In this document: in pieces, positions 18,292-25,228 of the stretch | Layout: every line of letters starts with the position of its first letter | How positions within the stretch are numbered: the stretch's first letter is position 1 | NCBI RefSeq assembly: GCF_054482595.1 | Contig: NZ_JBTHVH010000001.1 | From: a plasmid | Length of the DNA stretch: 64,000 nucleotides | Strand: one strand, 5' to 3' | Position numbers and translations under genes: made by a program | Notes under the pieces: model-generated | What the model was told of the DNA's origin: nothing | Seen by the model: only the letters and a program-made list of their open reading frames with translations | Database searches by the model: none

Positions 18292-18308
18292 TTTGCTCTA
18301 ATAAATTG
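18292..18308 (+). promoter_or_regulatory. C1 operator heading immI-type module 1
   Basis: TTTGCTCTAATAAATTG, 15/17 to consensus. Confidence 0.65.
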
Positions 18309-18491
18309 TGTTTTTTAACTACCGATGTTACATTGAACCTGACCTCTTGCGCCTTGAGGCATTTTCGGTTTATGCTTATCAGGCACCTCAGTAAAACGGG
18401 TGCCGGGATTGGCCTCCCGCTTAAGTCTAAGGCGATACAGACGCCGCTCGCGTCTTTTTTTTGTATCGGCGTACACGCACACCTCTACAAT

Positions 18492-18571
18492 GGTGGGCTG
18501 TATGGGGCTACCTTCGGGTAGGCTGGTTACCTTGGACGCCAGTAAGGCCAACTCCGTACAGTCCACCGCCA
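18492..18571 (+). ncRNA. c4: c4-like antisense RNA 1 (ends approximate)
   Basis: A 14-bp terminal stem GGTGGGCTGTATGG/CCGTACAGTCCACC followed by GCCA. UUCG-tetraloop hairpin at 18508-18521. The loop CCUUGGACG is complementary to the icd-1 Shine-Dalgarno region. Confidence 0.7.
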
Positions 18572-18627
18572 GCAAGATTGGTCTCTTCTGCGGTGGTTAC
18601 ATACCAACGTCTAAGGAGGCTGCCAAT

Positions 18628-18849
18628 ATGGCTACTATCCCTACCCCAACTCATCCTGAATTTATCTGGCGCTTTTACTCCTGCCAAAAACGTCACTATC
18701 ACTTCGTTATTGCACCGACAGAAGATGAGGCACGTTCTCAGCTTCCTGACGCCCCATGTATTTTCTCTGCCCGTTTTTCCACTGATTCACGCAATTCTCT
18801 CAGTTACTGGTGCCTCCCTGTTAACGCTTCTGCTCAGGAGGGACTATGA
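18628..18849 (+). CDS. icd: Icd-like protein 1 (73 aa)
   Basis: AAGGAGG ribosome-binding site. 73 aa, as for P1 Icd. The stop overlaps the ant start (ATGA). Confidence 0.7.
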   Translation: MATIPTPTHPEFIWRFYSCQKRHYHFVIAPTEDEARSQLPDAPCIFSARFSTDSRNSLSYWCLPVNASAQEGL

Positions 18850-19107
18850 GAACATCGTTAGTTACCCGTGAAGAGATGATCGAGGCAATTGAACAGCACA
18901 CTGCCTGTATCAGTACCAGGGATATACCAGGCGTTATTGCCAACTACTTCATGATCACCAAACAACTTTACCGGAGAAAGGACAAGAACGCGGTTCACCG
19001 TATCCTGTTGTCTGATATCCGCGAATACCTGCTCGAACAGGGTCATCTGAATTACGCAACCGTCGCAGCCGAATCACGCAAGGAGGCACACAGAATGAAA
19101 GCAACTA
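18655..19107. repeat. Inverted-repeat arm 1, left copy (partner 24415-24867)
   Basis: High identity by eye, including a perfect run of roughly 125 bp. Covers the icd 3' part and the first 87 ant codons. Confidence 0.85.
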
Positions 19108-19964
19108 ACGTTAAATCAGAAAAAATTCATGCACCTTCAGTTCAGGAATCGGAGCTGGTGGTTGTTCAGAATCAGTCTGATGAAATTCCCGTTCTGGAAT
19201 GGCAGGGAGTGCGTGTAGTGACAACCGAGACTCTTGCTAGAGGGTATGGGACAGAAACAATCCGTATTCGCCAAAATCATCATGAGAACAAAGTACGCTT
19301 TGTTGAAGGGAAGCACTTTTTCAAAGTTGAAGGAGAATCATTGCGCGAGTTGAAGCACAGAGTAGCTTTAAACTACTCTGTAAAAATTGCTCGCAATGTT
19401 CGCTCACTCACCCTCTGGACAGAACGCGGCGCAGCCCGCCACGCTAAAATGCTCGAAACCGATCAGGCATGGGCATTCTTTGAAAAACTGGAAGACAGCT
19501 ACTTCCGACAAAAAGAACAGCAACCGATCGCAATCCCCCAAACATTACCAGAAGCCCTACGCCTGGCTGCCGAACTGGCTGAACAAAAGCAGCTTCTGGA
19601 ACAGAAAGCCCACCAGCTAAATCAGCAGCTGGTGGCCGCCGCTCCTAAGGTCGATTTTGCCGACCGGGTATCAGTAGCTAAAGGGATCCTGATTGGGAAT
19701 TTTGCAAAGGTTGTTGGACTTAAGCAAAACGCGCTGTTTGTCTGGTTACGGGAGAACGGCATCCTGATAGCGTCCGGTGGACGTAAAAATGTGCCGTTCC
19801 AGCAGTACATCAACGCGGGGTATTTCACGGTGAAAGAAGTGGTGCTGGATGATGAAGATGGCTACCAGATACGGTTGACGCCTCAATTAACGGGTAAAGG
19901 CCAGCAGTGGTTGACGCGTAAACTGCTCGATGCTGGCTTGTTAAAACCGGTGGCGGCTGAATAA
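18846..19964 (+). CDS. ant: Ant-like antirepressor 1 (ORF6N-like centre, KilAC/ANT-like C-terminus)
   Basis: The centre (VVTTETLARGYGTE ... FVEGKHFFKVEGE ... LWTERGAARHAK) looks ORF6N-like. The C-terminus has NVPFQQYINAGYF (ANT type). An internal AAGGAGG plus ATG at 19095 matches the Ant2 arrangement. Confidence 0.75.
   Translation: MRTSLVTREEMIEAIEQHTACISTRDIPGVIANYFMITKQLYRRKDKNAVHRILLSDIREYLLEQGHLNYATVAAESRKEAHRMKATNVKSEKIHAPSVQESELVVVQNQSDEIPVLEWQGVRVVTTETLARGYGTETIRIRQNHHENKVRFVEGKHFFKVEGESLRELKHRVALNYSVKIARNVRSLTLWTERGAARHAKMLETDQAWAFFEKLEDSYFRQKEQQPIAIPQTLPEALRLAAELAEQKQLLEQKAHQLNQQLVAAAPKVDFADRVSVAKGILIGNFAKVVGLKQNALFVWLRENGILIASGGRKNVPFQQYINAGYFTVKEVVLDDEDGYQIRLTPQLTGKGQQWLTRKLLDAGLLKPVAAE
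19536..19964. repeat. Inverted-repeat arm 2, left copy (partner 23624-24052)
   Basis: The shared 142-aa Ant C-terminus. The DNA is clearly homologous with scattered mismatches. Confidence 0.8.
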
Positions 19965-19971
19965 TGGAAGA

Positions 19972-19993
19972 ATGCCCGGTTGATGCCGGGCAT
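19972..19993. terminator. Bidirectional hairpin between ant-1 and c1
   Basis: Stem ATGCCCGG/CCGGGCAT with a 6-nt loop. Confidence 0.6.
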
Positions 19994-19996
19994 AAT

Positions 19997-23621: not shown

Positions 23622-23623
23622 AA

Positions 23624-24052
23624 TCATTCAGCCGCCACCGGTTTTAACAAGCCAGCATCAAGTAGCTTGCGAGTCAACCACTGCTGGCCTTTACCCGTTA
23701 ATTGGGGCGTCAGCCGTATCTGGTAGCCATTTTCATCATCCAGCACCACTTCTTTCACCGTGAAATACCCGGCGTTGATGTACTGTTGGCGCGGTACGTT
23801 TTTGCGCGCACCAAAAGCCATGAGAATGCCGTTCTGGCGCAACCATGAGAAAAGGGCGTTTTGCTTCAGTCCAACGACCTTTGCAAAGTTCCCGATCAGG
23901 ATTCCATTAGCCACTGATACCCGAACGGCAAAATCGACTTTAGGGGCTGCGGCCACCAGCTGCTGATTTAGCTGGTGGGCTTTCTGTTCCAGAAGTTGCT
24001 TTTGTTCAGCCAGCTCGGCAGCCAGGCGCAGAGCTTCGGGGAGTGTTTGGGG
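23624..24052. repeat. Inverted-repeat arm 2, right copy
   Basis: Partner of 19536-19964. Confidence 0.8.
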
Positions 24053-24676
24053 GAGCACTGGAGAAGCAGTGTTAGCCTGCTGCAATTCCTCCAGTTTGTC
24101 GATCAGCGAACGGCGGACCGCTTTTGACTCGCGCGCGGCAACTCGCAGGGCTTGTTTGTAGGTCATGGAGATAGTTTCAGATGTTGTGTTGTTTAATTTT
24201 TGCACTACGAAAATTTCGTAGTACTCACCATCCAGTTCATCCTTAACTCTGGCAATAAAATCATTATTGCGAACTGGTTTTTCGCTGCATAATTTCCGCG
24301 CTTCATTGACCATCTTCAACAATGTTTGGCTGTCTATTGTGTCGCCGCTGTTGGGGATAACATTCACGGCTGGTGCAGTTGTTCCCAAAGACTTCGTAAC
24401 TACAGCGTCTGGTTTGCTTGCTTTCATTCTGTGTGCCTCCTTGCGTGTTTCGGCTGCGACGGTTGCGTAATTCAGATGCCCCTGTTCGAGCAGGTATTCA
24501 CGGATATCGGTTAGCAGAATGCGGTGAACCGCGTGTTTGTCCTTTCTCCGGTAAAGTTGTTTGGTGATCATGAAGTAGTTGGCAATAACGCCTGGTATAT
24601 CCCTGGTACTGATACAGGCAGTGTGCTGTTCAATTGCCTCGATCATCTCTTCACGGGTGACTAATGACGTTCTCAT
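23624..24676 (-). CDS. ant: Ant-like antirepressor 2 (different central domain)
   Basis: The N-terminal 86 aa and C-terminal 142 aa are near-identical to Ant-1, but the centre is unrelated. The internal SD plus ATG is retained at 24427. Confidence 0.75.
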   Translation of the reverse strand: MRTSLVTREEMIEAIEQHTACISTRDIPGVIANYFMITKQLYRRKDKHAVHRILLTDIREYLLEQGHLNYATVAAETRKEAHRMKASKPDAVVTKSLGTTAPAVNVIPNSGDTIDSQTLLKMVNEARKLCSEKPVRNNDFIARVKDELDGEYYEIFVVQKLNNTTSETISMTYKQALRVAARESKAVRRSLIDKLEELQQANTASPVLPQTLPEALRLAAELAEQKQLLEQKAHQLNQQLVAAAPKVDFAVRVSVANGILIGNFAKVVGLKQNALFSWLRQNGILMAFGARKNVPRQQYINAGYFTVKEVVLDDENGYQIRLTPQLTGKGQQWLTRKLLDAGLLKPVAAE

Positions 24677-24867
24677 AGTCCCTCCTGAGCAGAAGCGTTA
24701 ACAGGGAGGCACCAGTAACTGAGAGAATTGCGCAAATCGGTAGAAAAGCGGGCAGAGAAAATACAGGGAGCATCCGGAAGCTGAGAACGTGCCTCATCTT
24801 CTGTTGGTGCGATAACGAAGTGATAGTGACGTTTCTGGCAGGAGTAAAAGCGCCAGATAAATTCAGG
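24415..24867. repeat. Inverted-repeat arm 1, right copy
   Basis: Partner of 18655-19107. Coordinates map as x to 43522-x. Confidence 0.85.
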
Positions 24868-24894
24868 GCGTGCGCAAGGATTGGCATTAACCAT
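24673..24894 (-). CDS. icd: Icd-like protein 2 (73 aa)
   Basis: Same length as Icd-1 with a near-identical C-terminal 64 aa. ATGA overlap with ant-2. Confidence 0.7.
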   Translation of the reverse strand: MVNANPCARPEFIWRFYSCQKRHYHFVIAPTEDEARSQLPDAPCIFSARFSTDLRNSLSYWCLPVNASAQEGL

Positions 24895-24940
24895 AGTTAC
24901 GGCCTCATGTACAGGTTTAACAACCTGCTATCCGCTGCTA

Positions 24941-25021
24941 AACGGGTGGCAGGACGTGACGGGGTTAGCAGACTGGCGTACATGAAACCAGCAGGCCGAA
25001 GCCTCCCCATCACGCCCCACC
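24941..25021 (-). ncRNA. c4: c4-like antisense RNA 2 (ends approximate)
   Basis: Terminal stem GGTGG..CGTGATGGGG/CCCCGTCACG..CCACC. UUCG hairpin AGGCTTCGGCCT. The flanks TGGTT and ACGCCAGT are conserved with RNA 1, but the loop is UCAUGUACG. Confidence 0.65.
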
Positions 25022-25195
25022 ATAATTCGGGCGTAACGTGGTTTTACGGACACAAAAATACCGCAATATCGGATATCTGCGGTTGTCCGCATGTACATTC
25101 AGGCTGCTAAACCCGGTCGCAGAATTTGCTACGACGGCGGAACTATAAGCCTGAATGACAGGAAGATCAATAGTCTGGCGTTCAATGGTAGTATT

Positions 25196-25212
25196 TTTGC
25201 TCCAATAAATCA
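25196..25212 (+). promoter_or_regulatory. Weak C1-operator-like site facing the MBL gene
   Basis: TTTGCTCCAATAAATCA. Confidence 0.35.
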
Positions 25213-25228
25213 AATCTATTAGAGCAAT
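25212..25228 (-). promoter_or_regulatory. C1 operator heading immI-type module 2
   Basis: The reverse complement is ATTGCTCTAATAGATTT, 16/17 to consensus. Confidence 0.7.

Follow-up and report, generated by a model that had tools for sequence, protein, structure and literature searches.

We analysed a 64,000-nucleotide (nt) stretch of plasmid DNA (hereafter the window; NCBI RefSeq assembly GCF_054482595.1, contig NZ_JBTHVH010000001.1), which, judged from its sequence, is part of a natural phage-plasmid of the P1 type (Punavirus). It is colinear with P1 over pacA/pacB, c1, coi, lox, cra, cre and c8, with 92-97% identity. The immC-lox-cre core of this element is bracketed by two immI-type antirepressor modules, inverted relative to each other and oriented for inward transcription (18292-25228). 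An initial annotation, made from the letters alone, had proposed two complete c4-icd-ant modules here, and all the elements that it listed were recovered at or within a few bases of where it had placed them; the coordinates and strands of the inward-facing modules on both flanks of immC/lox/cre were likewise confirmed. Module 1, on the pacB/c1 side, consists of the following features.

18292-18308, + strand: C1 operator TTTGCTCTAATAAATTG, two mismatches to the consensus ATTGCTCTAATAAATTT, 3 nt past the pacB stop
18306-18334, + strand: candidate P51a-like promoter TTGTGT-17-TACATT, read by eye, overlapping the 3' end of the operator
18383-18463, + strand: IsrK-type leader RNA (isrK match 18383-18460; Rfam RF01394, 60 bits against a threshold of 50)
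18408-18415, + strand: leader a1, complementary to the module 1 c4 loop
18425-18432, + strand: leader b1, complementary to the module 1 c4 loop
18439-18455 and a T8 run, + strand: intrinsic terminator of the IsrK-type leader
18486-18573, + strand: c4 antisense RNA (RF01695, 75.9 bits against a threshold of 45, E = 4.7e-13)
18530-18537, + strand: b' loop of c4, CCUUGGAC
18545-18551, + strand: a' of c4, AGGCCAA
18577-18584, + strand: target a2
18609-18616, + strand: target b2, overlapping the icd Shine-Dalgarno sequence AAGGAGG (18613-18619)
18628-18849, + strand: icd, 73 amino acids (aa; NCBIfam NF033153 Icd-like, 49.8 bits against a cut-off of 25)
18846-19964, + strand: ant1, 372 aa (Pfam KilAC/ANT, E = 4.5e-31; ORF6N, E = 2e-19)
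19095, + strand: internal start of ant2, AAGGAGG and an in-frame ATG at codon 84, the codon of P1 ant2

The predicted fold of the module 1 c4 RNA has an energy of -41.6 kcal/mol, and its loops are predicted to form duplexes of -8.3 and -11.3 kcal/mol with the cognate targets and of -0.6 to -4.3 kcal/mol with non-cognate ones. The Icd protein is 74% identical to P1 Icd and 88% identical to the Icd of module 2, and the icd stop overlaps the ant start as ATGA. The Ant protein as a whole is 56% identical to P1 Ant1 (BLASTP, E = 7e-131) and is composed, in order, of the Ant1 N-terminal region, an ORF6N domain and KilAC. Its middle domain is not homologous to that of P1; the ORF6N domain found in its place shows 64% identity to antirepressors of Shiga toxin (Stx) phages and 57% identity to STM2616 of Gifsy-1. 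The ATGA overlap and the internal Shine-Dalgarno sequence with ATG at 19095 had been likened to P1 ant1/ant2 in the initial annotation, and the likeness held at codon 84. All the parts that it listed for module 1 are present, but the IsrK-type leader with its terminator was not named there. By manual comparison, this putative, low-confidence promoter has the geometry of P1 Oc4/P2c4. The label that the Prokaryotic Genome Annotation Pipeline (PGAP) and RefSeq give to the leader and c4 (L107 586-903, corresponding to about 18285-18600 of the window) is an incomplete 'ash family protein' pseudogene.

Module 2, on the c8/mat side, has a similar series of features on the opposite strand.

25263-25234, - strand: promoter-like site TTTACA-18-GATAAT with TG, from the promoter scan, directly upstream of the operator
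25228-25212, - strand: C1 operator, one mismatch to the consensus
25170-25142, - strand: putative P51b-like promoter TTGATC-17-TATAGT, from the promoter scan, homologous to P1 P1c4
25148-25096, - strand: c4-a1b1 leader motif (RF03163, 55.5 bits)
25110-25104, - strand: leader a1
25096-25090, - strand: leader b1
25027-24942, - strand: c4 antisense RNA (RF01695, 71.7 bits against a threshold of 45, E = 5.3e-12)
24984-24978, - strand: b' of c4, CAUGUAC
24971-24965, - strand: a' of c4, CUGCUAA
24941-24935, - strand: target a2
24912-24906, - strand: target b2, abutting the icd Shine-Dalgarno sequence GAGG
24894-24673, - strand: icd, 73 aa (NF033153, 49.8 bits), 81% identical to P1 Icd
24676-23624, - strand: ant1, 350 aa (Pfam ANT, E = 3.4e-28), with a P1/P7-like middle domain and then KilAC
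24427, - strand: internal start of ant2, an in-frame ATG at codon 84 with a strong Shine-Dalgarno sequence

Here too the icd stop and the ant start overlap as ATGA. The cognate loop-target duplexes of module 2 are predicted at -8.5 and -10.2 kcal/mol, and its Ant1 is 75-78% identical to those of P1 and P7.

To locate the insertions we compared the window with P1. In P1, pacB is directly followed by c1, as the initial annotation had stated, with 24 nt between their stops, and window positions 18287-19997 represent a 1.71-kb insertion at this point. On the other side, the P1 homology passes cre, c8 and the ref promoter/operator, ends at P1 2069 and resumes at P1 2528, so that window 23622-26185 replaces most of ref. 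The initial annotation had placed this module at a cra/ref junction; the P1 order is cra-cre-c8-ref, and the site of module 2 is therefore between c8 and mat. P1 has a single immI, which lies beside sim/kilA-repL, again as had been stated there and as the P1 record agrees, and both P1 and P7 are without either of the modules described here. Since the modules lie away from the sim/kilA-repL site, they are extra immI-type cassettes and not the immI locus itself.

The relatedness of the cassettes to Icd, Ant and c4 was upheld by alignment to the immI of P1 and P7: module 2 aligns over 93-96% of its length with about 80% DNA identity. The order of the C1 operator, a1/b1, c4, a2/b2 over the icd Shine-Dalgarno sequence, Icd, ATGA-coupled ant1 and ant2 is shared with P1 and P7, and all five modules compared have the ATGA overlap and start ant2 at codon 84. 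The identities differ strongly by region.

Icd: 88% between modules 1 and 2; 71-82% between either module and P1/P7
Ant1-specific N-terminal 83 aa: 96% between modules 1 and 2; 63-64% between either module and P1/P7
KilAC C-terminal 140 aa: 94% between modules 1 and 2; 86-91% between either module and P1/P7
Ant middle domain: 23% between modules 1 and 2; 63-72% between module 2 and P1/P7; 21.5% between module 1 and P1/P7

In the DNA, the similarity between the modules gives rise to two inverted repeats around c1-coi-lox-cra-cre-c8, one of 450 nt with 94% and one of 442 nt with 87% complementarity.

We next consider the recognition sequences. The roles of a1, b1, a2 and b2 were taken from the annotation of the P1 record, in which a' and b' of c4 pair with a2 and b2, and a1 and b1 lie upstream. 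The sequences of five copies, including the canonical immI copy of pYZMc17-1, the plasmid nearest to the window, are as follows.

P1: b' CACUAAC, a' CUGUCAA
P7: b' CACAAUC, a' CUGCUAA
Canonical copy of pYZMc17-1: b' CACAAUC (P7-type), a' CUGCUAA
Module 2: b' CAUGUAC, a' CUGCUAA
Module 1: b' CCUUGGAC, a' AGGCCAA

In all five copies, a1, b1, a2 and b2 are the matching complements of their own c4. Module 2 belongs to the recognition class ATGTA/CT, its b' allele being distinct from those of P1 (ACTAA) and P7 (ACAAT). When the predicted loop-target duplexes were summed, cognate pairs gave -18 to -20 kcal/mol and non-cognate pairs -3 to -13.5 kcal/mol. P1 and P7 are experimentally heteroimmune at immI, and by the same calculation P1 c4 on the P7 target gave -8.8 and P7 c4 on the P1 target -13.5, against about -18 kcal/mol for the cognate pairs; the three co-resident modules are predicted to be separated from one another no less clearly than P1 is from P7.

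To see whether these sequences covary more widely, we scanned IMG/VR with an exact pattern for the invariant part of P1-type c4, which gave 97 loci, and analysed these together with the references (103 P1-type c4 copies). Three b' alleles (ACAAT, ACTAA and ATGTA) and two a' alleles (CT and TC) were found among them, in all six combinations, and b1/b2 and a1/a2 were the exact complement of the c4 of the same locus in 96 of the 96 fully parsed loci. Cassettes of the module 1 type have at least three recognition alleles, represented by the window, RCS47 and contig L068; all six sites have changed in a compensatory way among these three, which share a conserved operator, promoter region and icd start. 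The c4 fold itself shows double compensatory changes in 14 of 28 pairs (six homologues). This comparative covariation is strong evidence that the predicted RNA-RNA contacts are functional and that their specificity diversifies.

A third copy is probably present in the same element. In pYZMc17-1 (99.6% identity over the region), a canonical immI with C4, a1b1, icd and ant lies at record positions 517-2032, adjoining simC and repL. By colinearity with this plasmid, the last letters of the window fall in the 3' end of pmgC, and the canonical immI should lie roughly 1.5-2 kb past them. Among contigs with at least two P1-type c4s (n = 7), no class is shared between copies, and a 97-kb IMG/VR contig has four cassettes (at pacB/c1, on the c8 side, at the canonical site and as a neighbour of the ban region) with four different recognition classes. 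The fourth site lies between a baseplate gene and a gene adjacent to ban/dnaB (L090 1579-3298 and L057 2360-4081, IMG/VR 2703718869_000013 and 2534681832_000017). Cassette parts are also found shuffled between sites (L015, L056, L079, L024, L031, L081 and L095; PLSDB hits H133-H135), with examples of P1-type leaders joined to an ORF6N-type Ant at the c8 or pacB side, of ACTAA/CT classes at the c8 side, and of module 1 leaders with a P1-like Ant middle domain.

The initial annotation had implied that the arrangement was new, and this was largely contradicted. Among 702 c1-bearing plasmids in PLSDB, the junction of pacB and module 1 is present in 272 (39%), from Escherichia, Salmonella, Klebsiella and Shigella, and the junction of c8 and module 2 in 56. 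Both modules, with at least 80% of the whole 7.5-kb region covered, were found in 43 of these plasmids and, at the same coverage, in 30 of 5426 complete Escherichia coli genomes. The RefSeq annotation of the region already includes two Icd-like proteins and two KilAC antirepressors. RCS47 (FO818745/NC_042128), the exemplar of a recognised Punavirus species, has an 'ant' annotated between pacB and c1, in a cassette whose recognition allele differs from that of the window; vB_EcoM-673R5 has module 1 at 98-99% identity, and pYZMc17-1 has both modules. Both insertions were mentioned at the gene level by Venturini et al. 2019 (PMC6906374), who described homologues of icd-ant1/2 in the variable region after c8 in pSvP1. 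Homologous cassettes thus occupy the same insertion sites in pTZ20_1P, pSvP1, RCS47, 673R5 and hundreds of RefSeq plasmids, but the earlier records and papers on P1-like elements list protein genes alone, and the c4 and leader RNAs are unannotated in every record examined. Among the papers covered by our literature search, duplicated c4 or immI copies beside c1 came up in the gene-level remarks of PMC6906374 alone, and no paper on c4 specificities, recognition classes or independent gating was found. The arrangement is a common natural variant, largely catalogued at the gene level, which the P1 and P7 references happen to lack. The earlier interpretation is thus partly supported: complete inverted immI-type cassettes absent from P1 and P7 are present, but their novelty and the cra/ref detail did not hold. 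New here are the RNA layer, in which the recognition sequences of the c4 copies are distinct and covary, and the finding that module 1 is a mosaic with parts of the IsrK/AnrP system.

From the anatomy, homology, covariation and prevalence observed here, we consider it likely that the modules represent two extra functional C1-repressed, c4-gated antirepressor operons besides the canonical immI, each with its own recognition sequence. A C1-operator-controlled promoter and a weaker downstream promoter would transcribe the leader, in which a1/b1, c4, a2/b2, icd and ant follow in this order. The single-stranded a' and b' regions of c4 would pair with a2 and b2, and because b2 covers the icd ribosome-binding site, the translation of icd would be blocked; ATGA translational coupling and polarity would then keep Ant1 and Ant2 off. 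Once made, Ant would inactivate C1, and both extra Ant proteins are predicted to act on C1. Since no two of the three operons have the same recognition sequence, we predict that they are gated independently, in vivo as well, and their most likely function would be that of independently gated antirepressors which widen immunity and anti-immunity. A resident would silence incoming relatives with any of its recognition classes, and a newcomer would escape immunity if the resident lacked even one of the matching c4s. The cassettes were probably acquired through recombination at two hot spots flanking immC.

A wider reading, which seems to us quite conceivable if somewhat short of probable, is a multi-locus heteroimmunity code, with up to four cassettes per genome, private c4 classes (at least six P1-type and three IsrK-type) and three-way compensatory evolution. 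An unmatched incoming element would then induce or overrun the resident, and residents would accumulate cassettes to widen exclusion. On this reading, the two cassettes that converge on c1 and on cre-c8 might also interfere, when they fire, with transcription of the repressor gene. The tripartite immunity of P1, a textbook system, was worked out on two laboratory phages with a single immI each, and about 39% of the c1-bearing P1-like plasmids carry a second operon beside c1 for an antirepressor that is predicted to be antisense-gated, 6-8% a third. If these are independently gated, it would be the cassettes that decide whether given P1-like phage-plasmids can coexist, or whether one excludes or induces another. 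Many P1-like elements carry resistance genes, and the question bears on their epidemiology as well as on P1-based tools.

Several points weigh against functional, independently gated operons directed at C1. Transcription from the proposed promoters is a prediction, and the promoter scan found no module 1 promoter above threshold, the site read by eye being a weak match to the consensus. Module 2 and the P7-type copy have the a' sequence CUGCUAA in common, and a second UAGCAG motif occurs in all P1-type leaders, so partial cross-talk is possible. The exclusivity of classes within contigs comes from seven contigs, is confounded by position and lineage and is not statistically decisive; ATGTA is mostly the allele of the c8 side, and ACAAT and ACTAA belong mainly to the canonical site. 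The third copy, at the canonical site, was observed only in the relative, and the window is not identical to pYZMc17-1. Finally, the target of the module 1 Ant may not be C1, because its ORF6N domain resembles antirepressors of lambdoid prophages.

The last point leads to the alternative that survives best. The isrK-orf45-anrP switch of the Gifsy-1 prophage of Salmonella Typhimurium has been studied experimentally (Hershko-Shalev et al. 2016, PMC4825925), and IsrK was found to activate the translation of orf45/anrP in trans (PMC4825925). Module 1 could be an activator switch of this type, in which the terminated leader small RNA, with its a1/b1 sites, would act in trans under stress to open or de-repress the icd-ant mRNA produced by read-through. 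This agrees with the match of its leader to isrK, complete with an intrinsic terminator, and with the order of Gifsy-1, where isrK and then C4 precede an ORF6N protein with 57% identity to the middle of the module 1 Ant; but module 1 also has a C1 operator, an icd gene, an Ant1 N-terminus 96% identical to that of module 2 and a KilAC domain 86% identical to that of P1, and its b2 lies over the icd Shine-Dalgarno sequence exactly as in P1. We regard the activator switch as less likely than a P1-type repressed operon, but as a live alternative. The related proposal that the ORF6N Ant targets lambdoid prophage repressors or a Q-type antiterminator circuit, and not C1, has a similar standing; ORF6N homologues are common among the antirepressors of Stx and other lambdoid phages. 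Neither proposal would be exclusive of the main reading, and P1, too, may have a decoy function of a1/b1.

It is improbable that the extra cassettes are passive debris left behind by recombination, imported or duplicated immI copies that are not selected for any function and are tolerated since c4 silences them. Their sites are known to vary among P1-like plasmids (PMC6906374), their parts are shuffled between sites, and laboratory P1 and P7 manage without them; but every open reading frame is intact with its coupling signals kept, three-way compensatory covariation is seen in both types of cassette, and the module 1 junction is present in 39% of the c1-bearing plasmids and in four genera.

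Still less credit is due to a structural role, in which recombination between the inverted repeats would invert c1-lox-cre or swap cassette halves as a switch. The repeats (94% and 87% complementary) do bracket 3.6-5.3 kb, and mosaics exist, such as the module 1 leader with a P1-like Ant middle domain (three plasmids) and P1-type leaders with an ORF6N Ant, but the 43 double-cassette plasmids are colinear with the window. When PLSDB was searched for the junction predicted from inversion (pacB, module 1 leader, repeat, module 2 Ant middle domain, c8), 0 records crossed from ant into c8, and the search returned three cassette mosaics at the pacB site and nothing else.

Mis-assembly of one immI copy into two extra places was rejected with near certainty: the exact 1341-bp tandem duplication at 61319-64000 suggests that the assembly may contain artefacts, but the modules differ mutually (their leader and c4 are unrelated in sequence, and their Ant middle domains share 23% identity), both differ from the canonical copy, and independent assemblies, namely 43 complete plasmids and 30 complete E. 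coli genomes, have the same arrangement.

The genes and sites between and beside the modules are as follows.

19972-19993, no strand assigned: GC-rich hairpin between the convergent module 1 ant and c1
19997-20848, - strand: c1 repressor gene (NCBIfam equivalog phage_rep_C1, 611 bits against a cut-off of 500), 96% DNA identity to P1
20959-23395, no strand assigned: bracketed core, colinear with P1 93232-94800 and 1-2069 at 96-97% identity
20959-21168, - strand: coi, part of the core
Centre about 21567, no strand assigned: loxP, part of the core
21773-21994, + strand: cra, part of the core
22002-23033, + strand: cre, part of the core
23084-23395, + strand: c8, part of the core
25371-26171, + strand: gene of a metallo-beta-lactamase (MBL)-fold hydrolase (Pfam Lactamase_B, E = 2.6e-15)

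A scan of the whole window against the consensus ATTGCTCTAATAAATTT gave 11 C1 operator-like sites, against 0.3 expected by chance. The MBL-fold gene was co-inserted with module 2, replacing ref, and because it is divergent from the C1 operator of module 2 it may also be controlled by C1. A remnant of the P1 ref operator/promoter remains at about 23527-23620 (+ strand), with a single ATTGCTCTAATTGA unit against the tandem pair of P1, and is now directed antisense into the 3' end of the module 2 ant. Beside the cassette region, the pYZMc17-1 record has a SIR2-family gene (40506-41810) between mat and the small genes adjacent to darB, which is absent from the window (27126-27158); this looks like a presence/absence polymorphism of a defence gene. 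At the other end of the window, the exact tandem duplication, with a period of 1341 bp, doubles part of pmgB and a gene for a 203-aa tail-tube protein (61968-62579 and 63309-63920). In the nearest plasmid the unit is single, and the duplication could be real or an assembly artefact at the contig end.

Among known systems, the P4-type CI RNA belongs to the Rfam C4 clan (CL00128); like c4 it is a structured antisense RNA processed from the leader that it controls, with paired upstream and downstream targets. It causes premature transcription termination of a replication operon and has no icd or ant. That PGAP files the module 1 leader under 'ash family' is a hint of a relationship between the two.

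The Gifsy-1 switch is closer to module 1. In Gifsy-1, isrK (79 bits) and C4 (69 bits) lie directly upstream of STM2616 (ORF6N); likewise the module 1 leader matches isrK and is followed by a terminator and then the C4 RNA, and coupling through an ATGA stop/start has also been described for Gifsy-1 (PMC4825925). A terminated IsrK leader upstream of a C4-like RNA is found in module 1 only. On the other hand, Gifsy-1 lacks the C1 operator, icd, the Ant1 N-terminal region and KilAC, all four of which module 1 has. In Gifsy-1 the 'orf45' that overlaps the C4 region is itself the coupling open reading frame, whereas module 1 has a separate icd, and the ORF6N protein stands alone, whereas in module 1 ORF6N is the middle of a three-part Ant. 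The output of the Gifsy-1 switch is the antQ antiterminator circuit of a lambdoid prophage and not the C1 of P1. In Gifsy-1 (NC_010392, L108 1197-1395), the orf45/STnc1160 region scores as a bona fide C4 RNA (69 bits) and IsrK overlaps the c4-a1b1 motif (48 bits), and the IsrK/AnrP switch is therefore a member of the c4 family, a link that is not drawn in the searched text of PMC4825925. Because an IsrK leader and an AnrP-type domain are joined in it to the operator, icd, the Ant1 N-terminus, the ant2 start and KilAC, module 1 is, by sequence comparison, a mosaic of an IsrK-type leader and an AnrP-like ORF6N domain in the frame of P1 immI.

Compared with the immI of P1 and P7, finally, the modules differ in their sites, which are pacB/c1 and c8/mat with no adjacent sim or kilA-repL; in their recognition sequences, module 2 having a third b' allele (CAUGUAC) and module 1 an entirely different a' and b'; in the IsrK-type leader and ORF6N middle domain of module 1; and in copy number, with two extra copies here and probably three in total.

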